Source: Squalus acanthias (Eukaryota). From it: DNA of 64,000 nucleotides. The translations under genes and the position numbers were made by a program. Location of the stretch: positions 89,468,001-89,532,000 of the forward strand of contig CM059432.1 in NCBI GenBank assembly GCA_030390025.1, given 5' to 3'. The notes under the pieces are model-generated. The model was not told the DNA's origin. It saw nothing but the letters and a program-made list of their open reading frames with translations, and made no database searches. Shown in pieces: positions 15,600 to 30,398 of the stretch (positions within the stretch are counted from its first letter, which is position 1; the number at the start of each line of letters is the position of its first letter).

Positions 15600-17329
15600 T
15601 GTAGAATTCGCAATATATCGCGATTTTATTAATAAGGAGAAAACACAGAGTTTCGTTCAAACAGCTTTTATTTTCAGTAGAATGCTGGCAGGTTTAAAGT
15701 GGACACAAGCAGCCTGTAAAATGGCCGCCGCACCTCGTGACAGAACATTCTAGACTTTTCAACAGGCAGACAAGATGGCGTTCCAATAAACATTTGTGCA
15801 AGATCGATTAAGATTCAGCACAGTGAAGATAATACACGAGACATTATGGGTTTGCAGTATACACATAGATACTGAAATCGGTCTCCCAGGTACAAAGGAA
15901 AGCCATTGTACCGAGTAATCAAGGGCCCATCCAAAAGACATTAATATGTAAAATCCCAACGACTCTACGATGAGAGAGCCGTTAGCAGGTAGTTATACAG
16001 GACACTTGGAAGCCCCAAACCCCTCCAGGGAGAACACCGACCGATTTAACAATGGGAGAAATATTAACAGGTACTCAGACATTTACGAGTAGCCCCGAAA
16101 CCCATTAAGAACGGAGATCACCCATACAAGACATTTGAGCGCCAAACCCTAAACAAAAGAATGGACATTATAGTTGGGCGGGAAACGGAAGATTTTGCAC
16201 TATAATTGCAGGCTCCAAACCGTCCATTCTCTCTCTTGCTCTCTTGCTGCTCTTATCATCGTGGCTGCTCCTGTGCTCTTATCCGGTCGATTCGTAACCT
16301 CGTGGCTGCTCCTGTGTACTCGTAGTTGGGCTCGCTCCTGCTTGCCTGTTGCCTCTTCTGAAAAGACTGTTGAACTTTCTGATCCGTTCGGATCTACCTC
16401 GTGTCGCGTAACGAAGACCTATATTGGTAACCGGTATCGGAACCAAAAGGCCCGAGAAGAGATGAGATGAGATGAGATGAGAAGAGAGGAAGACCATATC
16501 CATCGCCACGGTCAGTAAATCCCGACCGCGCCTGTAGGTCGATTATCCAAGTTTTCCTTGCTAGGAAGACTTCTTCGAACTTATAACGAAACATATTGCA
16601 TCGATGATAACTGGACTGTGCCCAAAGTAACTGGAATGTGAAAGCCATATCGTATCGACGATATTGACAACTGTGCTCGAAGAGTACCTGTTAAACCAAC
16701 CAATATAGATCTTCATCACAGCAGACGGTCCAGCCTGCTAGCCGGAGCAGCAGAAGCAAGTAAACAAGTGGGACCAGGAGATCTCCTGACCGACACGTGG
16801 GTGCTGCGGTGAAAAACATCCGATCAGCTATTCGGAATTTCTCCGAGTTATCATGAGTGGTGAGCATGAGTCTCGAGATCCTACGAAATCTAGTTTAGGA
16901 TAGATATTGATAGGGGAGGGTTTAAGGATTAAGGATATTTGTAATGTGTGCCCCTATTTATTTTGTGCCGTTCGTTCCTCGTTTCCCTAAGATCGACTAT
17001 ATAACTGTTTGTAAGATTGTACTGTCATTAATCTGTGCTTATGACATGTATTTCATAATTTTAAGTATCATGCAATAAAGATTTTCCATTTCGTACCATT
17101 CAAACCAAGTCTACATGAGTTTTATCTCCATTACTGCTCTCGCATCTAAGTCCAGTGTCTAGAACCGTAAGGGAGAGTGATTCGAACCACTCACAGGTGT
17201 GTCTAGTGTTCCCAGACTGGCTGGAGACCAGAACAGGCAACAAGGCCTAGACCCGCACTGACATACAGGCTGCACAGAGCCGCGTGAATCTCACAGGCTG
17301 CGAGACACGCAGGGTCAGAATCCCTTACA
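15600..17329 (+). repeat. 5' LTR (~1730 bp)
   Basis: Starts TGTAG right after the CACA TSD and ends CCCTTACA before the PBS. TATA-like TATAAT at 16201 followed by a pyrimidine-rich tract; AATAAA at ~17074; CpG-rich relative to the flank. Confidence 0.75.
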
Positions 17330-17333
17330 GAAA

Positions 17334-19145
17334 ATGGCGACCGCGGCAGGACACTGGCAGCGAGAGGGTAGTGTGTTAGATTTTGGAATGACTGTACGAA
17401 ATGTTATGCAGGAAAAGATAGCGGATTATGTGTTTGGAAAGGTTAATCTAACTAAGAAATGGATAAGTGAATTGTTAGCGGATAAGAGCCCACTAGAGGC
17501 AGCTGAAAGGTGGACAGATAGTAAAGAACATAGAAAGACACTTGAGAAAGCAGTCTGGCTTATGTGTTACAAAAGGCAGGTTCAGATTTCAAACCAGACC
17601 ATTACAGCGCTAGTAGCTCGAATCAGTCATTTAGAGGGAGAAATGGAGGAGAAGGTTTCTGGAGGGGAGGTGCTCATTAAGAATTTAAATGAGTTACACC
17701 AAGAAAGCCAGGAAGTCTCCAGTCACCTTAAAACAAGGATAGATTATCTCGAGTGCCAGGTCACTGAGGCAAAATTGAATGAGAGCAGGTTAAAGGAAAG
17801 ATGTAACCGCCAAGCTGCCCAGATAAGAACTCAAGAAGAGAGCTTGACGGGGGTTAGGGCGGCATATAAGTTGGCCCTTGAGGATAAGTTTCAGGGAGCC
17901 GATCATAGCGCCTGCCAAAGGGAGATAGAGCACCTCAAAAAGGCCGTGAACAATGCGAACGGCATGGTGTGCCTTATCAATCCGTCGGCGCACCAGCCGC
18001 TAGTAAATGAGAGATTTAGAAAATCCCCACCAAATAAAGCAGAAGAAGTAGTAGCCACTGCGCCCTCCGCGCCACCCAGCTATTCAGAAACCTGGGTTAG
18101 GGAGGAAGCAATGGAAGAAACAAAAGAGCCCATTGAAAAAGAAGTAGGAAAGGGATCGTTGTATCCAGTAACGGGTATTAAAAGGGGCCCAAGCAGAAAC
18201 GGTGGGGAAGAACCGGGGGATCTCCTCGGACAGCTGGTGTTGCCTCACAGTTCACATCAGCTGAGAGCTATGATAAATCACGTACGGAAGCTGACCGAGG
18301 CAGACGACCCTTCCGTACATTTCAGAGAAGTTGAGCAAGCCGCAGCCATTAACGGCTGCGATGATGGGGAAACAGCAAAAATGCTGCTGTTCTCATTAGA
18401 CAGCTCGGTCCTTCAGTGTCTCTCAGGCGAGAGCAAGAGGGGAACCAAGAGTTATGAGGAATTAAAGAATGAGGTCCTGGAAGTGTTGGGGGCGAACGAC
18501 GAAGGTCCGTTTGCTAGAGTGGGACAGACAGTGCAGATGGAGGGAGAACCCCCGAAGGTTTTTGCCGACAGGCTGTGGCCAGTATATGAGCGCAGCTGTC
18601 TAGGTGCGCCCGAGCGCGAAGATGTGGAAGGTTTAGCTTTAACTCATTGGCTTAGGTGCATAATAGCCAACAGTTTACCAGCCGTCAGAGAGCAGGCAAA
18701 AGCATGGTTTGATCCCAATGACCCCAACATTACGGAAGAGTCGGTCTTGAATCGACTCACGTTAGGTTATCGCAATATAAGGGGTATGGCAACACGTCCC
18801 CTTAAGGGAAGAGTACATGAGGTACGACCCGCAGCCCCGTATCAAAGAGAGTGGCATCAGGAGGGTAATCGCGCCCCGCAGGCAAGTAATGCTTGTTACG
18901 GGTGTGGGAAGACAGGGCACTGGCGCAAGCATTGCAGGAACCCTTGGAAGGATTCCAAGGATAAAAATCCCGCGGTCCGAGCCCAGGCGCCTGTCCCGGC
19001 TAAGGAAGCCAAGGCACCCACCCCTCCCGACGACCTCGAAGCAGTGTTAGGAGCCATGCGCAAGCTGGTCTTGAATGCGCGTGGACAGGTGGCGGTCGCA
19101 ACCGGCCCCGTAGGTGCCGCAGGACCGTCTAATAGTACCCCATGA
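17334..19145 (+). CDS. gag: Gag polyprotein (603 aa)
   Basis: N-terminal coiled-coil region, PSAPPSY late-domain motif, MHR-like QMEGEPPKVFADRL, single CCHC knuckle CYGCGKTGHWRKHC (18894-18935). Confidence 0.9.
   Translation: MATAAGHWQREGSVLDFGMTVRNVMQEKIADYVFGKVNLTKKWISELLADKSPLEAAERWTDSKEHRKTLEKAVWLMCYKRQVQISNQTITALVARISHLEGEMEEKVSGGEVLIKNLNELHQESQEVSSHLKTRIDYLECQVTEAKLNESRLKERCNRQAAQIRTQEESLTGVRAAYKLALEDKFQGADHSACQREIEHLKKAVNNANGMVCLINPSAHQPLVNERFRKSPPNKAEEVVATAPSAPPSYSETWVREEAMEETKEPIEKEVGKGSLYPVTGIKRGPSRNGGEEPGDLLGQLVLPHSSHQLRAMINHVRKLTEADDPSVHFREVEQAAAINGCDDGETAKMLLFSLDSSVLQCLSGESKRGTKSYEELKNEVLEVLGANDEGPFARVGQTVQMEGEPPKVFADRLWPVYERSCLGAPEREDVEGLALTHWLRCIIANSLPAVREQAKAWFDPNDPNITEESVLNRLTLGYRNIRGMATRPLKGRVHEVRPAAPYQREWHQEGNRAPQASNACYGCGKTGHWRKHCRNPWKDSKDKNPAVRAQAPVPAKEAKAPTPPDDLEAVLGAMRKLVLNARGQVAVATGPVGAAGPSNSTP
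17335..17352 (+). promoter_or_regulatory. Primer-binding site, tRNA-Arg(UCG)-type
   Basis: TGGCGACCGCGGCAGGAC starts 5 nt after the LTR end and is complementary to the 3' end ...GTCCTGCCGCGGTCG-CCA that I recall for vertebrate tRNA-Arg(TCG). Confidence 0.8.
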
Positions 19146-22100
19146 CTAGAACCGGCGCAGCCCGTCTACCTGTGTCCGCTTAGCTATGATGCGTGGAGGC
19201 GACCTGTGGTGGAGATGGAGGTAGAGAAACAGAAGGGTAGTTATTTGTTGGACACGGGAGCTTCTTGCACCATAATCCATACAGATAACCCTTTTGACTC
19301 GCCGCTATCTACCAAGGTCCCATTCACGTTAGCAGGGTTCACAGGAAAAGAACAGGCTGGCACGTTTTCCCTTCCGCTATCCATTCGTTTAGGAACACTT
19401 CGCCTTAAGTGGAAGTGTATACTGATGGCATGGCAAAAGGGGGGTGGAAGAGGTATTCTCGGGTCCGATCTCCTAGCGGGACACGGGATCCTCGTGGACC
19501 TCAGAAATCACTGTCTTTGGGGGGCTAAAGGTGAAAAAGGCGAGGTAATAGTGATTCCGGGGGAGGAAGAAACAGGGGTCCTGTGTACCGTACAGCCATC
19601 CGGAGGCTACGACCTCAGGCTTATGGTCGCAGATGTCCCAACGGACATGCAAACGTACGTGTCAGATAATATGCACGCGTTTGCAACCCACAAGCACGAT
19701 TGTGGGAGAGTGGTCGGGTTTGAGGTCAGCGTAGATGGGGACCCCATGACCCGACCCCAAAAGCAGTATAACTTCCCCAAAGAAGCCGAACCCGATATGG
19801 AGACAGCAATGTCCTCCTTGGTGCAGCAGGGCATGTTGAGGCCGATAGCCACACACGTGAACTCCCCATTATGGCCGGTTAGGAAGCCGGATAATTCGTG
19901 GAGAGCCACGGTGGACTACAGAGTCCTTAACAGTAACATTCCCGCCTGCGCGCCCACAGTAGCAGCAGTTGCTGACCTAATAGGGAGCATCCCAGCGTCC
20001 GCGACCACGTTCACGGTGCTGGATATCTCGAACGGTTTTTGGTCCATCCCGCTGCGGCGAGAGGACCAGTACAAGTTTGCCTTTACTTTCAAAGGGCAAC
20101 AGTACACGTGGAACTGTCTGCCACAGGGTTTCCACAATAGCCCCAGTATTTTTCATCAGTGTATGGCAGGAAGTTTAAAGGAGTTTAGTCAGCCCAATCA
20201 GATAGTACAGTATGTGGATGATTTGCTCCTATTTACGGACTCAAGGGAGGAGCACGGACCACTACTGGACGAGTTATTGGAGCTGTTAGCGAGAAAGGGT
20301 TTTAAAATAAACCCTAAGAAAGCACGTATCGGTCAGCGGGAAGTAAAGTTCCTGGGACTGACCATACGCGCTGGGGAAAGAGCCATAGACAAAGCAAGGA
20401 GGGAGTCGGTGCAAGAATTACCGATTCCCAACAACGTAAGGGGTGTGAGGTCCTTCTTGGGACTGACCGGTTACTGCAGGGATTTTATCGAAGATTATGC
20501 GGCCACAGCGGCGCCGCTCCTCCGACTCCTCCATAAGGGGGTGGAGTGGCTTTGGGACGAGGGCTGCCAAGCAGCCTTCGAGAAGTTAAAAAGGGATCTG
20601 CAGACCGTGCCAGCCTTAGGGGCCATAGATGGGGGGAAGGAGTTTTTCCTGGAGGTAGCTGCCAGCGGAGACAGCTTAAGCGCCGTGCTGCTCCAAGAGC
20701 GTCACGGCAAGCTGAGGCCGGTTGTCTATTCATCCAGGGTATTAACGGATGTGGAGAGAAGTTTCTCCAATTGCGAAAGGCACCTTTTAGCCACGCATTG
20801 GGCTGTGAAAAGATCAGCGATCTTCACAGGGCTCTCTCCCATCACTCTCCTCACACATCACACACCAACTAAGATGCTTCTGGATGGGAGGATTAAAGAC
20901 GGGACCGTAAGCAGCGCACGCATTGCGCGTTGGACCCTTCTTCTCTCCCAGTTGGATCTTAGAGTAAAAGGTCTTTGCGAGCCAAGGCTTGCGGCCAATC
21001 TGGTATACCCCGGTACAGCCCACCGTTCGGTGGAAGGGGTGTGGGACGTCAACATAGGTTTACGGGCCGGGATACATCCCACTGGGCGCGAGATTTATGT
21101 TGATGGGTCTAGCACAGTATCTGCTGGCGAGCGACTCACAGGGTGTGGAGTTTATGACCCTGCGGCAGACCTTGCCCTGGCGATCAAGCTCCCTAGCACT
21201 ATGAGCGCGCAGCAAGCTGAGCTGTCTGCCGTGGTGTACGTTGTGACCCACCCAGACATTTTCCCAACCCCATACACGATTTGCTCGGACAGTATGTTCA
21301 CCTGCAATTCGTGTACGGAATACCTGGCCATTTGGTCCCGCCGCGGATACACCTCCGCGGACGGGCGACCTTTAACGGTGAAGCCCTTGCTGGAAAAGAT
21401 CTTAGCAGCAGCAGTAGGGGAGGAAGGAGAGATTTTCATCCATAAGGTGAAAGCTCACTCCTCCACAGAGCCCCGTGGGGAGGGCAACCGGCAGGCGGAT
21501 GCGCTAGCCAGGGAGGGTGCCCGCGACGGCACTTTCTGGAACCCCTATAGGACCGGACCCATAGCAGCGGTCCGAGGCGGGGACGGGAATCCCGGGAACC
21601 CCAGGGTAGCATTGCCCCTAGACCTTAAGACCGTCCAAGCCCAGGACCCCGCCCTAAAAGCAGTCCTAAAAACGATTGCTGAGGGGAGGCAGGTAGAAGG
21701 TCCGTACAGTACGGCAACCCTCTCAGTTAAGGAAGGCATGCTGTTCCGCGAGGAGCAGTGGGTTGTGCCGCAGCAGCACAGGAGGGAATTCCTCCAGTTG
21801 GCTCACGAGGGACCAGGGGCAGGGCACCCCGGGCCCGAGGTTACCTGGCAACGGGTAGAGCAAGCGGGATGGTGGCCAGGGCTCAGGGAACAAGTCCGCG
21901 AGTTCTGTGCAAACTGTCTTGTGTGCGCTGCAAACAACCCAGACCCCCAGAAAAGGAAGGTGCCCATGGGACACGTAAGAAGGGTAGAGGGACCATGGCA
22001 GTCGATACAGATCGACTATATAGGACCCCTGCCCACCACCCAGGGAGGTTATAAGTACTGCCTCGTCCTGGTGGATGTGTTTTCCAAGTGGGTGGAAGCC

Positions 22101-23639
22101 TTCCCTTGTCGAACAGCTACGGCACTGGGTACAGCAAAAATCTTGGTCCGGGAAGTGTTCTCGCGGTGGGGACTCCCCCGTTTTGTGGAGTCAGACCAAG
22201 GGAGTCATTTCACCGGCCAGGTGATGCAGAACACCCTCATGCTTTTGGGCATTGAAGGGAAGTGGCACGTAGCACACAATCCCCAGTCATCCGGGATTGT
22301 TGAACGTATGAACCGGACCCTGAAGGAGAAATTGAGGAAAGAGACTAGGAACTCGCCCCAAAAATGGGCGGAAGTTCTGCCTTTAGTCCTCATGGGGGTC
22401 CGGGCCAGTCAGTCAAAAAGTACGGGGTACTCCCCGCACGAGGTAATGACTGGCAGGCTCATGCGAACCCCCACCCATGTGCTAGCCCCGGTGCTCACTG
22501 AGGGTCAGCTCCAGGAGATAAGCAGGGACAAGTTCGCCCAGACTCTCTTGGAGTGCCTGAAGCAGGTTTATGAGCAGGCGGCTGGGAACATGGGAAGGCA
22601 GCATCAGGGCAATCGCTTGTTGCTGGAACCCCGCAAAACACGGGAGTGGGAAGTGGGAGACCAGGTCATGGTCAGAAACTACGCCAGAGTAGGGAGTCTG
22701 GAACCACTGTATATGGGACCCTACAACATTGTAGACAAGGCGAGTCCCATGGTTTACGCCGTAAAAGTACCTCGGCGCACTAAGTGGTTCCACATAAACC
22801 AATGCAAACTGTACCAGCCAGGTGTGCAGGGGAAAACTACAGGGGTAAATCCCGCCAATGGGAAAGCACAGCCCCAGGTAGGACCACAAGGCACACAGGC
22901 AGGCATAGCAGCTTGCATCAGGGGAAGGGACATCCCGGACGATCATGCAGCGTTTTTCTGGAATTGGGGGTTAGATGAGGAAGAATTCAGGGTACCCGGG
23001 TCAGATGAGGATAGTGCAGATGAGGATAGTGATGACGACGGGTGGTTTCGGAGGAACGGTCCCTTTTACGATATGGAGGGGACGGGGGCTGCAGGTAGAG
23101 ATCCACACAGGGTGGACACACGAGCTGCAGGTCCCGAAGACAGGAGGGAGGAGCTAGAGGAGGCGGGGCCAGCCGCGATGGGAGCACAGAGAGTACCGGT
23201 GTGGCTCCCAGAGATGTGGCCGCCCGCTTTGAACGTCCAGTCCTCAGGGGAGGCAGAGATCACGAGTGAAGGGCCGCCTGCTGGGCCGAGCAGGGCGGAG
23301 CCACGAACTGCCAGCCCCGAGGTTAGGGAGGCGGAGTCAGCGGAGGCGGAGCCAGCGACTGTGATGGAACCCCAGGTCATCCCGATGGAAGTCTCGGAAC
23401 CCGGTCCGTCCGTCACGGAAACCCCGCCCATAGCAACTCCCCGTAGGTCAAGTAGAGAACCCCAGCCCAGGAGGATGTGGTCATGTCCCCAGACTGCCCC
23501 AAGGCGAAAATTTAAGGTTAAGATAACCCAGATACAGACCGGTCACATCGCAGCAGTAACAGGCTGCGGCAGATCAGAGGGAAGGGTCAGTGCCCTCCCA
23601 CCGTCGGGAAGAGCTCGCAGCAGCCTTCTCAGAATTTAA
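19146..23639 (+). CDS. pol: Pol (protease-RT-tether-RNase H-integrase plus C-terminal extension), in frame with gag after one TGA
   Basis: LLDTGAS (D at 19251); LPQGF and YVDD (20211); degenerate RNase H; second RNase H YVDGSS/QQAEL/SDS/NRQAD; HHCC zinc finger; IDYIGP...SDQG...IVERMNRTLK; GPY. Frame is open from 19146. Confidence 0.95.
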   Translation, partial: LEPAQPVYLCPLSYDAWRRPVVEMEVEKQKGSYLLDTGASCTIIHTDNPFDSPLSTKVPFTLAGFTGKEQAGTFSLPLSIRLGTLRLKWKCILMAWQKGGGRGILGSDLLAGHGILVDLRNHCLWGAKGEKGEVIVIPGEEETGVLCTVQPSGGYDLRLMVADVPTDMQTYVSDNMHAFATHKHDCGRVVGFEVSVDGDPMTRPQKQYNFPKEAEPDMETAMSSLVQQGMLRPIATHVNSPLWPVRKPDNSWRATVDYRVLNSNIPACAPTVAAVADLIGSIPASATTFTVLDISNGFWSIPLRREDQYKFAFTFKGQQYTWNCLPQGFHNSPSIFHQCMAGSLKEFSQPNQIVQYVDDLLLFTDSREEHGPLLDELLELLARKGFKINPKKARIGQREVKFLGLTIRAGERAIDKARRESVQELPIPNNVRGVRSFLGLTGYCRDFIEDYAATAAPLLRLLHKGVEWLWDEGCQAAFEKLKRDLQTVPALGAIDGGKEFFLEVAASGDSLSAVLLQERHGKLRPVVYSSRVLTDVERSFSNCERHLLATHWAVKRSAIFTGLSPITLLTHHTPTKMLLDGRIKDGTVSSARIARWTLLLSQLDLRVKGLCEPRLAANLVYPGTAHRSVEGVWDVNIGLRAGIHPTGREIYVDGSSTVSAGERLTGCGVYDPAADLALAIKLPSTMSAQQAELSAVVYVVTHPDIFPTPYTICSDSMFTCNSCTEYLAIWSRRGYTSADGRPLTVKPLLEKILAAAVGEEGEIFIHKVKAHSSTEPRGEGNRQADALAREGARDGTFWNPYRTGPIAAVRGGDGNPGNPRVALPLDLKTVQAQDPALKAVLKTIAEGRQVEGPYSTATLSVKEGMLFREEQWVVPQQHRREFLQLAHEGPGAGHPGPEVTWQRVEQAGWWPGLREQVREFCANCLVCAANNPDPQKRKVPMGHVRRVEGPWQSIQIDYIGPLPTTQGGYKYCLVLVDVFSKWVEAFPCRTATALGTAKILVREVFSRWGLPRFVESDQGSHFTGQVMQNTLMLLGIEGKWHVAHNPQSSGIVERMNRTLKEKLRKETRNSPQKWAEVLPLVLMGVRASQSKSTGYSPHEVMTGRLMRTPTHVLAPVLTEGQLQEISRDKFAQTLLECLKQVYEQAAGNMGRQHQGNRLLLEPRKTREWEVGDQVMVRNYARVGSLEPLYMGPYNIVDKASPMVYAVKVPRRTKWFHINQCKLYQPGVQGKTTGVNPANGKAQPQVGPQGTQAGIAACIRGRDIPDDHAAFFWNWGLDEEEFRVPGSDEDSADEDSDDDGWFRRNGPFYDMEGTGAAGRDPHRVDTRAAGPEDRREELEEAGPAAMGAQRVPVWLPEMWPPALNVQSSGEAEITSEGPPAGPSRAEPRTASPEVREAESAEAEPATVMEPQVIPMEVSEPGPSVTETPPIATPRRSSREPQPRRMWSCPQTAPRRKFKVKITQIQTGHIAAVTGCGRSEGRVSALPPSGRARSSLLRI

Positions 23640-23669
23640 AGGGGCCGCCCTGAGAACGGGCGGCACTGT

Positions 23670-23765
23670 AAAGTTATAGTTCTAAGTTTTAAGTTTATAG
23701 TTCAAGGTTAAGTTTTAAGTTTATAGTTCAAGGTTAAGTTTTATGTTTTATTAAGGTTAAGTTTG
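23670..23765. repeat. Imperfect ~26-bp AT-rich tandem repeat between pol and env
   Basis: GTTTTAAGTTTATAGTTCAAGGTTAA twice plus degenerate copies. Confidence 0.8.
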
Positions 23766-23950
23766 TAGTGTTTTTAACAGAAAACGATAAAATGATGGGA
23801 GTTTTAAAGATAGGTTTAGTTGAAGTTTATTCAGCGAACGTTGAAGTTTACGTGAGGCGAGGTCAGGGGACCCGCTCACCCTTCACAAAAGCCAGAGACT
23901 CTTGCGAGGCTGGCTACCTCATTCTATCTGATCACAGGAACCAAGGAAGG

Positions 23951-26302
23951 ATGGAACGAATTCTAGTATTGCTCGCGGCAATCGGATGTGGATTGGCCTA
24001 TCGAGGCCGCACCAAGGATGTCGTGGTGTTTGGATGTTCCGGGGACACGGCCCCCATCGCGGTGGATGGGACCGGAAGACGGGAGGCAGAGGAGACCAGC
24101 ACCTATTTCCACAAGGGAAGGTGGCCAGGATGGCTGGGAACGAACTCAACGGAGTATTCCAGCACATCGGGGTTTGCCTACCAAGAGACTTCTTTACTGT
24201 GCCCCAAAGTAAGGATCATCGCACCCAGGATCAGCGTCACCGTCGGCAAACGGATTTGTTTGACTTGTAGTGGGAAGGTCCCATTGAGCCGATGGTGGTG
24301 GCTGCGAAAGCTGAGCAAAACTATGAGGAACTCTTCGGTCGAGTGGGAACGACTGGGTAATAATACCCATCGGACAATTACGGGGACAGACGGACAAGTG
24401 AAAGTCTGTTGGGACAAATGGTGGGAACCGGATGAGGGAATTTATGTATGTATGTGGGGGTCAAAGTACGTTTGCCCCAAAGGCATCTCCATATTTTTTA
24501 TTAATCAATGGCAGGATAACGGACAGGGGATGAGGTGGGATGCGAGCACCAGGGGGTGCGGAGCCCCATTCTCCCCGATCCCAGTAAATGCCACTGAGCT
24601 CATTACGCGCCCACGCAAAGCCCCGCCCACGATTCCGGTGGTTCTAGCTGAGGAAGAAGGGTGCCCTAAAACTAGTAAGGGACCCGGGAATGGTTTGGTA
24701 CTGGTCCCCACAGACCAGATACTATTTCAGGGGGTACATTACGCGGTGGCCTCGGAGATTTTAAATCTCACTGAGGTGCGGTTACCAGAGTGGTGCCCCA
24801 AAAAGATGGAACAGTTGTACCAGGTCCTGTTGACCAAGATGTTCAGACAATTTTACGAATTCGATTTCGCGGAAATTGATAAAACAAGTTTGTACACCGC
24901 ACCACAGGAAGTTTTGGATCAAGTAGGGAGGCAAAGAAGGGGTTTGGTGAACGATGCGTTCACTGCTTTTAACACAGGTACATCTGTGGTCAACGCTCTA
25001 GACAGTGTGGAGCTGCAGACCCAGATTAATGGTTTAAAGACACAATTAAAGGACATTCTAACAGATGAGAATAAAGTGGTAGGGTCGGGTCTACACGAGG
25101 ACCAAGCCATGACCCTCCATTTAAAGGAAATTATAGCAGAGTTGGAGAAACATGCAAAGACGGTAAATGCCCTGATTAGGGAAGATCGGAATGCATCCGA
25201 TCAAGCTGCGCAGAACGAGGTGTGCGTGCTTTACGGGGCGTGGTTACTGGGCGAGGGCCGCAGTAATTTGGAAGATTTAAAACAAGGTTTGGTTCCGTCC
25301 TGGATAAGTAACAAACACCTGCGGGCGCTCCACCCTTTTCAGAACGCATTAAGCCCGTGCCAGCTCAGGCTAGCTTCAGAAGCATACCCAGTCCCCGTGG
25401 ACTGTGGACGATCAAACCATACCATCATGGGTATAGTTTTACGTATGCCGGTTTTGGGCGACACAGCAAAGCCCGCCCCGGTATATCGGGTAGAGAACAT
25501 TGGTGTCATTCAGGGGGGAGCCCACATTCGTTATGCAGCGGTTCCACCTTATGTCATCCGCTGGGAGCAAACGATGACAGGTACAGATCTCTCTGGTTGT
25601 CGTGGCAGGGGAGCACACATAATACTGTGCCCCCAGCACTTGAATGCCTTTTTAACACCACAGTGCGGGTTCAGAACGACTGGCGCCAAGTCCATGAATT
25701 GCACCATGGAGGCAATGGCACAAGATCATGTGCCTCCGCAGGTAGCATACATCGGGGGTGGAACATATTGTGTTACCACTGCAGCGCAACACTACCAGCA
25801 TGGAAACCGTAGCCGGTGTCCGGTGAGTGACAGCAGTTTCTGTTTTAAACCCAGGGCGGAAGTTCAAGTAGCACAACAGCGAATTATCCCAATCCCTGAA
25901 CCATCCACTGTTCATCTCACAGTAAAAGAGAATTTCACCGACTTGCAGCGATTCGTCGCGCATTTTGGATACCTCATTCCCCCTCTCCCTGAACACCTCA
26001 CCAAGCTTTTGAAAGCCGTCGCGGTGTCACAGAAACATTTTTATACATTAGAGCAGAAAACTGTCGAAATAGGAACAGACATTCTGGATATAGTAGTTCC
26101 ACCGTGGTGGAATCTATTCACCAATATTGAAGTACCTTCATGGATCAGAATAGCCTCCCACATTTTAGTCGTATGCCAAGTTTTCATTGTAGTGTACCTA
26201 TTGGTTGTACATTGTAAAAGAGACAAACGCCTCACCAAGCATGAAAACACGGGAGAGTGGCGAGAACGTTACGTGCGCGTGCACGATGAGAGCACCGTGT
26301 AA
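23951..26302 (+). CDS. env: Env glycoprotein (~783 aa): signal peptide, Ig-like domain, F-type class I fusion protein
   Basis: AGGATGG start; MERILVLLAAIGCGLA signal; furin site RQRR (24929-24940) followed by GLVNDAFTAFNTGTSVVNAL; heptad repeats; Cys-rich region; TM ILVVCQVFIVVYLLVV; short tail. The ORF is open from 23768. Confidence 0.88.
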   Translation: MERILVLLAAIGCGLAYRGRTKDVVVFGCSGDTAPIAVDGTGRREAEETSTYFHKGRWPGWLGTNSTEYSSTSGFAYQETSLLCPKVRIIAPRISVTVGKRICLTCSGKVPLSRWWWLRKLSKTMRNSSVEWERLGNNTHRTITGTDGQVKVCWDKWWEPDEGIYVCMWGSKYVCPKGISIFFINQWQDNGQGMRWDASTRGCGAPFSPIPVNATELITRPRKAPPTIPVVLAEEEGCPKTSKGPGNGLVLVPTDQILFQGVHYAVASEILNLTEVRLPEWCPKKMEQLYQVLLTKMFRQFYEFDFAEIDKTSLYTAPQEVLDQVGRQRRGLVNDAFTAFNTGTSVVNALDSVELQTQINGLKTQLKDILTDENKVVGSGLHEDQAMTLHLKEIIAELEKHAKTVNALIREDRNASDQAAQNEVCVLYGAWLLGEGRSNLEDLKQGLVPSWISNKHLRALHPFQNALSPCQLRLASEAYPVPVDCGRSNHTIMGIVLRMPVLGDTAKPAPVYRVENIGVIQGGAHIRYAAVPPYVIRWEQTMTGTDLSGCRGRGAHIILCPQHLNAFLTPQCGFRTTGAKSMNCTMEAMAQDHVPPQVAYIGGGTYCVTTAAQHYQHGNRSRCPVSDSSFCFKPRAEVQVAQQRIIPIPEPSTVHLTVKENFTDLQRFVAHFGYLIPPLPEHLTKLLKAVAVSQKHFYTLEQKTVEIGTDILDIVVPPWWNLFTNIEVPSWIRIASHILVVCQVFIVVYLLVVHCKRDKRLTKHENTGEWRERYVRVHDESTV

Positions 26303-26584
26303 TCGGAAAATGGCGTCACTCCCGCTCGCCACGTGCGCCGCGGAAGCCTGTACTCATATAAGATTTTCAGAGATTGTAAATACGTTGGGAACTCGACATG
26401 TTTTAAGAGTTGGTGTTGATTATTTTGGTGATGGTGTTACAGTTAAAAATGATTGTTTGGTTTTGGGTTCTGTTTCTCCTTTCCCTGAATAAAAGATGAA
26501 TATACAGGTGATACGAGAGGCATCGGCCTGGTTACGCCGGGAAGGAAAACAAGTGGTGTAAGTTTAAGGGCAAATAATGCCTAC

Positions 26585-26995
26585 GGTTTAAGGATTAAGG
26601 ATATTTGTAATGTGTGCCCCTATTTATTTTGTGCCGTTCGTTCCTCGTTTCCCTAAGATCGACTATATAACTGTTTGTAAGATTGTACTGTCATTAATCT
26701 GTGCTTATGACATGTATTTCATAATTTTAAGTATCATGCAATAAAGATTTTCCATTTCGTACCATTCAAACCAAGTCTACATGAGTTTTATCTCCATTAC
26801 TGCTCTCGCATCTAAGTCCAGTGTCTAGAACCGTAAGGGAGAGTGATTCGAACCACTCACAGGTGTGTCTAGTGTTCCCAGACTGGCTGGAGACCAGAAC
26901 AGGCAACAAGGCCTAGACCCGCACTGACATACAGGCTGCACAGAGCCGCGTGAATCTCACAGGCTGCGAGACACGCAGGGTCAGAATCCCTTACA
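26585..26995 (+). repeat. Truncated 3' LTR (last 411 bp only)
   Basis: Matches 16919-17329 base for base by eye; no copy of 15600-16918 upstream of it. Confidence 0.9.
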
Positions 26996-27731: not shown

Positions 27732-29258
27732 ATCTGACATGCACTGGTTGAGGGTGGAGCCCTGCTGGCAGTATGGGACCTCTTATGAAATGGTATATTT
27801 GGGGGGGGGGGGGGGCACGGGGAAGATACCTTTACTGCATTTTAAACCTGTTCAGACTAGTTCTAAATTCCATCAGTGACAGAAGAGATGATAAAGTCAT
27901 AGTGAATGATCGCATCAACTCACAAGCTGATTAAATCTCCCAGCTAAATTGGTGAATTTTAATACTGTGTGGAAAGATTTCTGCCCATGTAACCATGAGC
28001 CAGATAATTCACATGGCCAGAAATCACATGGCCAAAATTCAATTTCCCACCAGGTGGAGAGCTGGTGGGAATTTTACTGATGCACGGAACTATGTACTGA
28101 AAAAGAGACTTTTACAGAAAATAAAAATCACTTTCATTTGGTAGTATATTTCCTATAACAAGTGAAGAACCAGTGAAAGACAAACCTGCCAAAATTGTAA
28201 CAGATTTGTAGTATCCATGGGTTTTTGATAAGGTAACATATAGGAACAAAAAGTGAATCTCCAAACAATCTGTACCTTCTTTTGACTGTTTGCGCCTCCG
28301 AGAATATTTCACTGGCAGGATGTGGAAGAGCTAAGCGTTTTTTTCTTCTTTAATCCCTGCTCAGTTTCCTTCTGCTTTGAATTACTGTGTTCATCTCAGC
28401 CTGTAGTACTCTGTCCAGAGGGGAAACAAAACTCTCTTGGTTTCATTGAACCAGACTCATTCAAGTACTCTGATGTCCTGCTGTACTGCAGGTAAAAGCA
28501 AACTTTGGCAAATATAGATCCCAATCCTTACAATTTTCATTCAGATAGGCTGTGTTAATCCTGCTATTTCTATTTACCATTTTGGTAGGATTTTATTGAT
28601 GATGATAGACTGTTGTACATTTGGATTCTTACTCCCTGGATCCTACAAAATGTTCCTCGAGGTAATCTGGAGACGGTTTCCTTTCCAATGAAAATTTCAG
28701 ACAGCCTCACAGAAAAAAAATCTCTATCTTTGAACTTCTTAACCATTACCTTTGTGGCAGCTTTCTCAAAGGAAATAACAAACCTCCCACCAGCAAATCC
28801 ATTGTAACATTGCTTGCTGAAAGAGAGAGGTTTCACAAGTGTACAATCAGTGTGTGCCAAGATTCTGCCACATATAAGAACGTAAGAAATAGGAGCAGGA
28901 GTAGGCCATACGGCCCCTCGAGCCTGCTCCGCCATTCAATAAGATCATGGCTGATCAGCGACCTCAACTCCACTTTCCTGCCCAATCTCCATATCCCTTG
29001 ATTCCCCTAGAGTCCAAAAATCTATCTCAGCCTTGAATAAACGTAATGACTCAGCATCCACAGCCCTCTGGGGCAGAGAAGTCCAAAGATTCACAACCCT
29101 CTGAGTGAAGAAATTCCTCTTCATCTCAGTCTTAAATGGCTGACCCCTTAGTTCTAGACACTCCAACCAGGGGAAACAACCTCTCAGCATCTACCCTGTC
29201 AATCCCCTTCAGAATCTTGTATGTTTCAATGAGATCACCTCTCATTCTTCTAAACTCG

Positions 29259-30398
29259 TTCGAGCAAGACTTCTTCGCTGCACAGGACCTTCAGCCAACG
29301 CTGTACACCAGATACATCGACGACATTTTCTTCCTTTGGACCCACGGCGAAGGATCACTGAAAAGACTACACGATAACATCAACAAGTTCCATCCCACCA
29401 TCAAACTCACCATGGACTACTCCTCAGAATCGGTTTCATTCCTGGACACACGAATCTCCATCAAAGACGGACACCTCAGCACTTTACTCTACCGCAAGCC
29501 CACGGACAACCTCACGATGCTCCACTTCTCCAGCTTCCACCCTAACCACGTTAAAGAAGCCATCCCCTATGGACAAGCCCTGCGAATACACAGGATCTGC
29601 TCAGACGAGGAGGAACGCGATGGACACCTACGGACGCTGAAAAACGCCCTCGTAAGAACGGGATATGACGCTCGACTCATCGATCGACAGTTCCAACGGG
29701 CCACAGCGAAAAATCGCATAGACCTCCTCAGAAGGCAAACACGGGACACAACCAACAGGGTACCCTACGTCGTCCAGTACTTCCCCGGAGCGGAGAAACT
29801 ACGCCATGTTCTTTGCAGCCTTCAACATGTCATCGATGACGACGAATACCTCGCTAAGGCCATCCCCACGCCTCCACTACTTGCCTTCAAACAGCCGCCT
29901 AACCTCAGAAGTACCATCGTTCGCAGCAAATTACCCAGCTTTCAGGATAACAGCGACCACGACACCACACAACCCTGCCACGGCAACCTCTGCAAGACAT
30001 GCCAGATCATCAACACAGATACCATCATCACACGTGAGGACACTACTCACCAGGTACATGGTACATACTCATGTGACTCGGCCAACGTTGTCTACCTGAT
30101 ACGTTGCAGGAAAGAATGCACCGCAGCATGGTACATCGGCGAGACCATGCAGACACTGAGACAACGTATGAACGGACACCGTGCAACAATCGCCAGGCAG
30201 GATTGTTACCTCCCAGTCGGGGAACACTTCAGCAGTCAAGGACACTCAGCCTCGGATCTGCGGGTAAGCGTTCTCCAAGGCAGCCTTAGAGACACACGAC
30301 AACGCAAACTCATCGAGCAGAAACTGATAGCCAAGTTCCGCACTCATGAGGACGGCCTCAACCGGGATCTTGGGTTCATGTCACGATACATGACGTAG
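29259..30398 (+). pseudogene. Penelope RT C-terminal half plus GIY-YIG endonuclease (open but 5'-truncated)
   Basis: RYIDDIFF, FLD, YRKPT, CxxxxCxxC, NVVYLIRC...WYIGETMQTLRQRMNGHR, GLN. Confidence 0.9.

Follow-up and report, generated by a model that had tools for sequence, protein, structure and literature searches.

Fusion proteins of the F type are built on a core that is common to paramyxo-, pneumo-, corona- and foamy viruses and that takes add-on receptor-binding modules (PMC11468914). The foamy virus envelope protein (Env) has this F core, on which receptor-binding domain (RBD) modules can sit either at the N terminus or between the subunits (Fernandez et al. 2024, PMC11468914), and the Env of lokiretroviruses has been described as similar to paramyxovirus and pneumovirus F (Wang and Han 2020, PMC7947760). 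For gamma-type Env (RBD-C of murine and feline leukaemia viruses, MLV/FeLV, and EnvP(b)1) an N-terminal immunoglobulin (Ig)-like RBD followed by a proline-rich region is reported; Env-Dbi carries an IgV domain captured from host SIRP, and RBDs were exchanged between lineages (Hotzel 2024, 10.1101/2024.03.17.585361). In the endogenous retrovirus (ERV) CrocERV31 the whole mRNA of host nectin3, about 76% identical to the host sequence, replaces env (Chong et al. 2014, PMC4299795). Our subject is an Env of 783 amino acids (aa) encoded in a 64,000-nucleotide stretch of the Squalus acanthias genome (assembly GCA_030390025.1, contig CM059432.1, positions 89,468,001 to 89,532,000; hereafter the window), where its open reading frame (ORF) sits in a proviral element at 15600-26995. 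We lean, with no great assurance, towards reading this protein as an Ig-like attachment head on a Pro-rich stalk, joined in one precursor chain to an F-type (class Ib) fusion body.

The layout of the protein follows from computation on the ORF (Table 1), and the elements listed in an initial annotation of this DNA, which are the Ig motifs, a Pro-rich linker, GLVLVPT, RQRR, a Cys-rich block and a transmembrane (TM) segment, are all found in it. The landmarks of the Ig superfamily come first: a B-strand Cys (Cys106, in a context of the GxxVxLxC type, with a second Cys at 103), a C-strand Trp and an F-strand DxGxYxC motif, at a spacing of about 60 aa (60 residues lie between Cys106 and Cys167, the end of DxGxYxC). 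A Pro-rich stretch follows (aa 204-245 include 9 Pro, the overall share being 5.7%); the F2-like subunit begins with GLVLVPT, the one luminal furin site is RQRR at aa 327-330, and the Cys-rich block spans Cys550-631. Pattern search of the 783 residues gave no CX6CC and no immunosuppressive-domain (ISD)-like motif, in agreement with what had been annotated, and the sole CXXC is Cys103/Cys106, within the Ig B strand. A gamma-type Env would have CX6CC and an ISD in TM and a CXXC in SU, and the window Env does not show these.

The proposal that the part behind the stalk is an F-type fusogen has held up well. In the predicted model (AlphaFold2, aa 232-783, mean predicted local distance difference test (pLDDT) score 68.8, with aa 314-395 under 50) there are long helices at aa 353-444 and 679-712, and the class Ib structural core (domains I-III) is present. 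Foldseek with aa 245-651 returned human parainfluenza virus 3 (hPIV3) F as the best match (E 2.7e-12), and all rows listed were F of paramyxo- or pneumoviruses. The top 16 rows of VIA-align were F proteins or foamy Env (Z 11.3-6.0), the next, unrelated, row having Z 5.0; the root-mean-square deviation (rmsd) of these matches is large because the hinge and the conformation differ. In a library of viral structures the matches included lispivirus-type glycoproteins, baculovirus F and feline foamy Env. The language-model neighbours of aa 240-783 are the gypsy/baculovirus F and paramyxovirus F0 clusters (0.93-0.95), and a profile from a 61-row alignment matches foamy Env 8rm1 (E 0.0017). A signal peptide, a furin site ahead of a weakly hydrophobic putative fusion peptide and a C-terminal TM are also in place. 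The predicted F-type fold of the C-terminal body is strongly supported, and we regard it as secure. Its aa 245-651 show the fold and domain order of paramyxo/pneumovirus F (PF00523) and of baculovirus/errantivirus F (PF12259, PF07253), but identity to known F is only about 9-14%, and Pfam on the Env body by sequence alone gave no match. An exogenous fish retrovirus, walleye epidermal hyperplasia virus 1, has an Env (Q9WHI8, BFVD) whose predicted structure also matches the F body (E 4.5e-11), although that protein differs in having 1317 aa and 14% identity.

The head, in our opinion, is probably an Ig fold. The spaced pattern L-x-C / W / D-x-G-x-Y-x-C turned up once when aa 1-240 were shuffled 20,000 times and in none of 20,000 whole-protein shuffles, a significance that is somewhat overstated because the pattern was written after viewing the sequence. 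Of 27 family members, 20 have a Pfam Ig_3 match with E no higher than 0.1 (the lowest being 8.3e-4); any other Pfam family appears in one member at most. The Ig clan accounts for nine of the ten best named language-model (Atlas) neighbours of the head. All 50 rows listed by VIA-align have an Ig fold, 49 being Ig-superfamily and one a titin FnIII when classed by titles and chain sizes, with Z 6.1-7.1 and rmsd mostly 2.2-3.1 A over 82-98 residues; the matches listed by Foldseek are likewise Ig domains, chiefly antibody V. Embigin, LAG3, CD8, TREM and CD79b are among the structural neighbours. No gammaretroviral RBD structure appears among the fold matches listed for the head, which excludes nothing. 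The Ig landmarks are largely conserved across 27 family rows, in which many Trp and Cys never change. Cys103 and Cys153 are among these unchanging residues, and they stand where strands B and E would face outwards, which suggests a possible extra disulfide, Cys103-Cys153. Since many of the fold alignments begin at aa 31, the N-terminal arm may lend the first strand to the predicted Ig sandwich, around an insertion.

What stands in front of the F body is far from constant among the relatives of this Env. The closest come from skate, sawshark, smoothhound and bamboo shark; the distant ones have a common F body from the first Cys-Pro onward and differ in front of it. A bamboo-shark relative (P0013, itself with relatives in the Squalus acanthias genome) carries the automatic name 'Ig-like domain-containing protein', two frog proteins (P0019 and P0047) have an Ig B-strand motif, and P0036 has a weak V-set match (E 0.045) without the B-strand Cys and no PDB match at E 1. 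The heads of P0012, P0024, L064 and L062 are Cys-rich and without Ig motifs, while P0039 and the coelacanth protein P0048 run from the signal peptide straight into F2. Comparison of Env N termini across relatives thus finds Ig-like, unrelated or no heads on the same F body.

The heads themselves are hard to connect. With hhalign, links were found for P0019-P0047 (E 3.6e-16), P0013-L073 (E 3.3e-6) and P0013-L076 (2.7e-5), and for no other pair; the window head aligned to the other heads at E 0.013-0.78, and in two of these nine comparisons (P0013 and P0019) it did better than every one of the 25 shuffles. Pfam on nine other heads or relatives gave a single match, V-set at E 0.045 for P0053. A tree built from the F part of 19 rows, without P0013, places the window group as sister to heads that do not look like Ig (99/98) and the head-less P0039 as sister to the V-set-like P0036 (99/97). 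Two histories may lie behind this: one ancient Ig domain that diverged past recognition and was at times replaced or lost, or several separate gains.

Two further observations belong to these relatives. At three loci of the Env group nearest the window F body, with non-Ig heads (L115, L116, L119), pol matches best with an epsilon-like Astyanax protein (3/3, by small margins), and at four loci with Ig-motif heads (L114, L117, L118, L120) it matches best with the window/frog/coelacanth group (4/4); exchange of env between retroviral lineages is possible as far as sequence goes. Pieces of env also occur inside annotated host proteins, namely sawshark P0003 and P0004 (Niban-1-like and ZFP2-like) and P0040 (an F-box-like motif by eye), which are probably artefacts of gene models or exonised ERV pieces.

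The head is conserved and is under purifying selection. Its identity is 72-74% in the skate relatives and 49-59% in others, and at least 150 older copies with the head exist in the Squalus acanthias genome. Against five older subfamily copies pN is 0.21-0.24 and pS 0.70-0.79, the latter saturated; identity to five older copies is 56-65% in the Ig part, 64-72% in F2, 74-86% in the F1 helices and 45-53% in the linker. Codon counts within the family itself (73 synonymous and 8 non-synonymous in 14 of 19 copies, five being dropped for anchor mismatch) are not used as evidence, because the copies were chosen by protein similarity.

Paramyxoviruses rely on a separate attachment protein, and paramyxovirus F is not known to carry an N-terminal head. 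In the Squalus acanthias Env both tasks would be combined in one protein. Furin would cut the precursor at RQRR, and the head would stay on the F2-like subunit of a trimer via the Pro-rich stalk. There it would bind a partner on the cell surface and so replace the separate attachment protein of paramyxoviruses; partner binding or endosomal uptake would then trigger refolding of F1 and membrane fusion. The position of the head, N-terminal and before a proline-rich region, is the slot of the gamma-type Ig-like RBD, and this favours attachment as its role.

There are two groups of observations that weigh against this account, the first concerning what the protein does. The hydrophobicity of the putative fusion peptide is low (0.68 on average across 20 aa; 0.39-0.84 in the four relatives in which the pattern was correctly registered, two others being mis-registered), and it falls in the low-confidence stretch of the body model. 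The variability of the head is not above that of F2, so there is no clear arms-race signal, and head-less Env relatives exist, so the head is not required in every lineage. One could suppose that the Ig-like head acts on the prefusion F trimer as a cap, stabiliser or shield, with attachment left to the F body itself, a reading that we consider unlikely, though worth keeping in mind. It would suit a head that is highly conserved, keeps many Trp and Cys without change and varies no more than F2. The N-glycan sequons fit it as well: four precede F2 (65, 127, 137 and 213), and three of them belong to the arm and Ig part. The head-less relatives, like the lokiretrovirus Env, must attach without a head in any case. 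However, the Pro-rich stalk parts the head from F2, as in receptor-binding domains that fold independently, and the exchange of the whole head for unrelated ones in sister lineages fits a specificity module better.

The second group concerns the fold of the head. Its model is weak (mean pLDDT 51.5, with five models ranging over 34.5-51.5), and the best VIA-align Z, 7.1, is below 8 and so in the range that the tool calls 'possibly common arrangement'. Foldseek gave no match to the head at E 0.001 or better (best 4.6e-3). The Pfam score of the window head on its own is 15.1 bits against a cut-off of 30, and the Atlas scores are 0.87-0.89, where anything below 0.9 counts as a lead only. Searches of PDB sequences with the protein and two profiles gave no Ig match for the head beyond a phmmer one to JAM-A at E 1.5, and the head profile aligned with a profile of 25 host V domains over just 17 columns (E 0.041). 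These weak scores, together with the lack of a donor, are what might be expected if the head were not of the Ig superfamily at all but a virus-made, disulfide-bonded beta domain, either convergent or a default of the predictor. We give this little credence: three canonical landmarks stand in the right order and spacing and are largely conserved, sequence profiles, language-model features and predicted fold agree on Ig, and the bamboo-shark relative received its Ig-like name independently. The Ig domain of the initial annotation therefore keeps its motifs, its Ig_3 profiles and its fold matches, but not high model confidence, a Z of 8 or a Pfam score above the cut-off; similarity to F is found for the body, while an Ig sandwich is only probable for the head.

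The claim that the Ig domain had been captured fares worse. A phmmer search of 1.84 billion representatives, with the whole Env as query, yielded 51 matches at E 0.001 or better and no host Ig among them. The best blastp match of the head to 25 host V domains has E 0.62, and the profile of these domains aligns weakly to any of the heads. Identity of the head to any structural match is 8-21%, and the matches are tied across unrelated Ig families. As no host donor was found at the level of sequence or structure, capture is something we infer; and as the head is common to the skate and sawshark relatives, any capture must be ancient. A host origin is in the end likely, if untraceable; within this Env family the head has long been a part that can be exchanged, not something captured once and recently. 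That the head serves as an immune decoy or modulator, imitating an Ig-superfamily receptor of the host on the surface of virions or of infected cells, is improbable: the Ig fold, structural neighbours that include immune and adhesion receptors and the precedents of captured Ig genes in ERVs (nectin3 in crocodilian ERV4, SIRP-like IgV on Env-Dbi) speak for it, but mimics usually stay recognisably similar to their host model, as the SIRP-like and nectin3 cases do, and the head, at 8-21% and tied across families, does not.

A broader idea may be entertained, quite tentatively: that the F scaffold is a plug-in platform on which host Ig-superfamily heads were taken up more than once and then swapped or lost. 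The head types would be that of the window, an I/C2-like type in frogs and a V-set-like type without the B-strand Cys in P0036; the hosts would be sharks, skates, frogs and coelacanth, and the retrovirus lineage a widespread one without a name. All of this is doubtful as yet. Were repeated capture true, F-type Env would have its own counterpart to the Ig-like RBDs of the gamma type, and with it a natural F protein that attaches and fuses in one chain, on a plan like that of the coronavirus spike.

How does the protein compare with the described systems? Like foamy Env (PDB 8rm0, 8rm1), it has a retroviral F-type core with an added receptor-binding module; unlike the foamy RBD, which is a novel fold between the subunits (PMC11468914), the module is Ig-like and N-terminal. 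The element also differs from foamy viruses in its Gag zinc knuckle and in having gag and pol in one frame with a stop. With the gamma-type Env it shares the order of Ig-like N-terminal domain, proline-rich region and fusion machinery (10.1101/2024.03.17.585361), but gamma-type Ig heads ride on surface and transmembrane subunits (SU/TM), whereas the window Env folds as F, and the SIRP case has a clear donor, which the window head lacks. CrocERV31 likewise has an Ig-superfamily sequence in the env position of an ERV (PMC4299795); in the window the Ig-like part is instead joined to a fusogen that is intact, and no donor can be traced for it. With lokiretrovirus Env (PMC7947760) the window Env shares a signal peptide, an RxKR site, a fusion peptide, a coiled coil, a TM and similarity to F, and the F2 start of the form GP-x-x-G-hydrophobic and later motifs are recognisable by eye in both. 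However, 22 of the 23 published lokiretrovirus entries run from signal peptide to F2, the 23rd being without its N terminus, and none has an arm of 200 aa. The initial annotation knew of no retroviral Env with this combination, which is half true: each half has been published, but nowhere in the literature searched, outside which lay most subscription papers, bioRxiv supplements and Repbase, did we find a retroviral Env of the F type described with an Ig domain. The surprise is moderated because both halves, and Ig capture onto Env, are already in print.

Similarity of its Env to Mononegavirales F is a lokiretrovirus character that the element does possess, and lokiretrovirus was the first guess for its lineage. 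This assignment is rejected on Pol: holding the window with the four Loki-like rows gives p 0.0215 in the approximately unbiased (AU) test. Pol has the tether plus new RNase H, which is common to all retroviruses and hence not diagnostic of lokiretroviruses. In trees of the reverse transcriptase (RT), a quick one with all 120 listed matches and a careful one with 35 chosen rows, the window falls on the retrovirus-proper side of a 99/99 branch and groups with proteins from frog and coelacanth that bear the annotation NYNRIN-like (90/96; 43-54% identity). Loki-like rows were labelled by motif match to published sequences and the other groups by Pfam content; these trees contain no named sequence of snakehead retrovirus (SnRV) or foamy viruses. 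The main text of Wang and Han (PMC7947760) does not name chondrichthyans as lokiretrovirus hosts. Foamy-like ERVs are described with a Gag lacking the Cys-His zinc finger and mostly a tRNA-Lys primer (PMC5210030), and ERV4 with a 5-bp target-site duplication and no zinc finger (Chong et al. 2014, PMC4299795). The CCHC knuckle of Gag and the tRNA-Arg primer-binding site (PBS) do not fit a foamy-like ERV, and ERV4 is at odds with the zinc knuckle and with a 4-bp target-site duplication in all four copies checked, the window copy among them. SnRV is said to be primed by tRNA-Arg. Judged by sequence, the element would belong to a retrovirus-proper lineage without a name, neither Loki nor foamy, with its nearest Pol relatives in frog and coelacanth.

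The ERV family is young, abundant and recently amplified. In the host genome (3.7 Gb searched), all of the 57 env matches scored, out of 12,889 candidates, are full-length, stop-free and 99-100% identical; with the head as query all 150 matches scored are at least 99% identical, and all are ERV copies. The paired long terminal repeats (LTRs) of three other copies are 99.4-99.9% identical. In other copies env is followed by a purine-rich tract and a full LTR of about 1.7 kb.

Table 1. Features of the proviral element and of its Env, in window coordinates
Feature	Position	Strand	Remarks
5' LTR	15600..17329	+	about 1.73 kb, TG...CA ends; boundaries set from other copies with the same stretch at both ends
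Primer-binding site, 18 nt	17335..17352	+	complementary to 3' end of host tRNA-Arg(TCG) plus CCA
gag, 603 aa	17334..19145	+	N-terminal coiled coil, CCHC zinc knuckle, TGA end
pol	19146..23639	+	continues the gag frame; codes for protease, RT, tether, RNase H and integrase, then a long low-complexity tail
env, 783 aa, intact	23951..26302	+	ORF and near-identical genome copies
Signal peptide, about aa 1-16	23951..23998	+	hydropathy; cleavage site inferred
N-terminal arm, aa 17-83	23999..24199	+	conserved in family; beta strands in model
Probable Ig-like beta-sandwich, aa 84-184	24200..24502	+	Cys106, Trp115-117, Cys167
Linker with Pro/Thr-rich stalk, aa 185-237	24503..24661	+	
F2-like subunit, aa 238-330	24662..24940	+	terminal furin site RQRR at 24929-24940
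F1-like subunit, aa 331-783	24941..26299	+	putative fusion peptide, helical repeats, Cys-rich beta domains, stalk helix, TM, short tail
TM helix, aa 734-752	26150-26206	+	single; Kyte-Doolittle 2.55
3' LTR, truncated	26585..26995	+	last 411 nt alone; identical to 16919-17329

Several details of the provirus deserve mention. The primer tRNA was taken from ARAGORN, which called tRNA-Arg(tcg) at both loci scanned, and the pairing register was read by eye. The first gag ATG (17334-17352) overlaps the PBS, 4 nt past the LTR end, and is a candidate start; the Pfam zf-CCHC match of Gag is weak (E 0.29). The gag stop (19143-19149) is a TGA in UGACUAG, a readthrough-type context; in animal viruses and in human genes this motif is reported to allow basal readthrough (PMC13517186). 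Beyond the integrase some 260 open codons (22900-23639) form an acidic, Pro-rich pol tail, which is also retained in pol-deleted copies. Such derivatives, L021-L023 (G000:C16:35630000-35660000), keep gag and an intact env; window positions 19178-22794 are missing from them, about 245 nt of other sequence with one frame open being there instead, and they stand head-to-tail in arrays of about 7.7 kb with common LTRs. Units bearing tRNA-Arg(TCG) form long tandem arrays with a 1.62-kb period at G000:C26:38.9-42.2 Mb, and a 22-nt tRNA-Arg(TCG) pattern has 424 exact matches across the genome. Downstream of the provirus, 29136-30398 is an ORF of 420 aa, which we take from its motifs to resemble the C-terminal part of a Penelope-like RT with a GIY-YIG-type endonuclease.

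The Env described here would be a natural F-type case with an N-terminal Ig-like module, and its relatives show the module present, replaced and absent. The case is relevant to how retroviral Env came by its receptor-binding domains and to whether Ig-like heads have arisen more than once. Since the ERV family is both very young and present in many copies in its host, this Env may still be expressed and may matter to the biology of Squalus acanthias.

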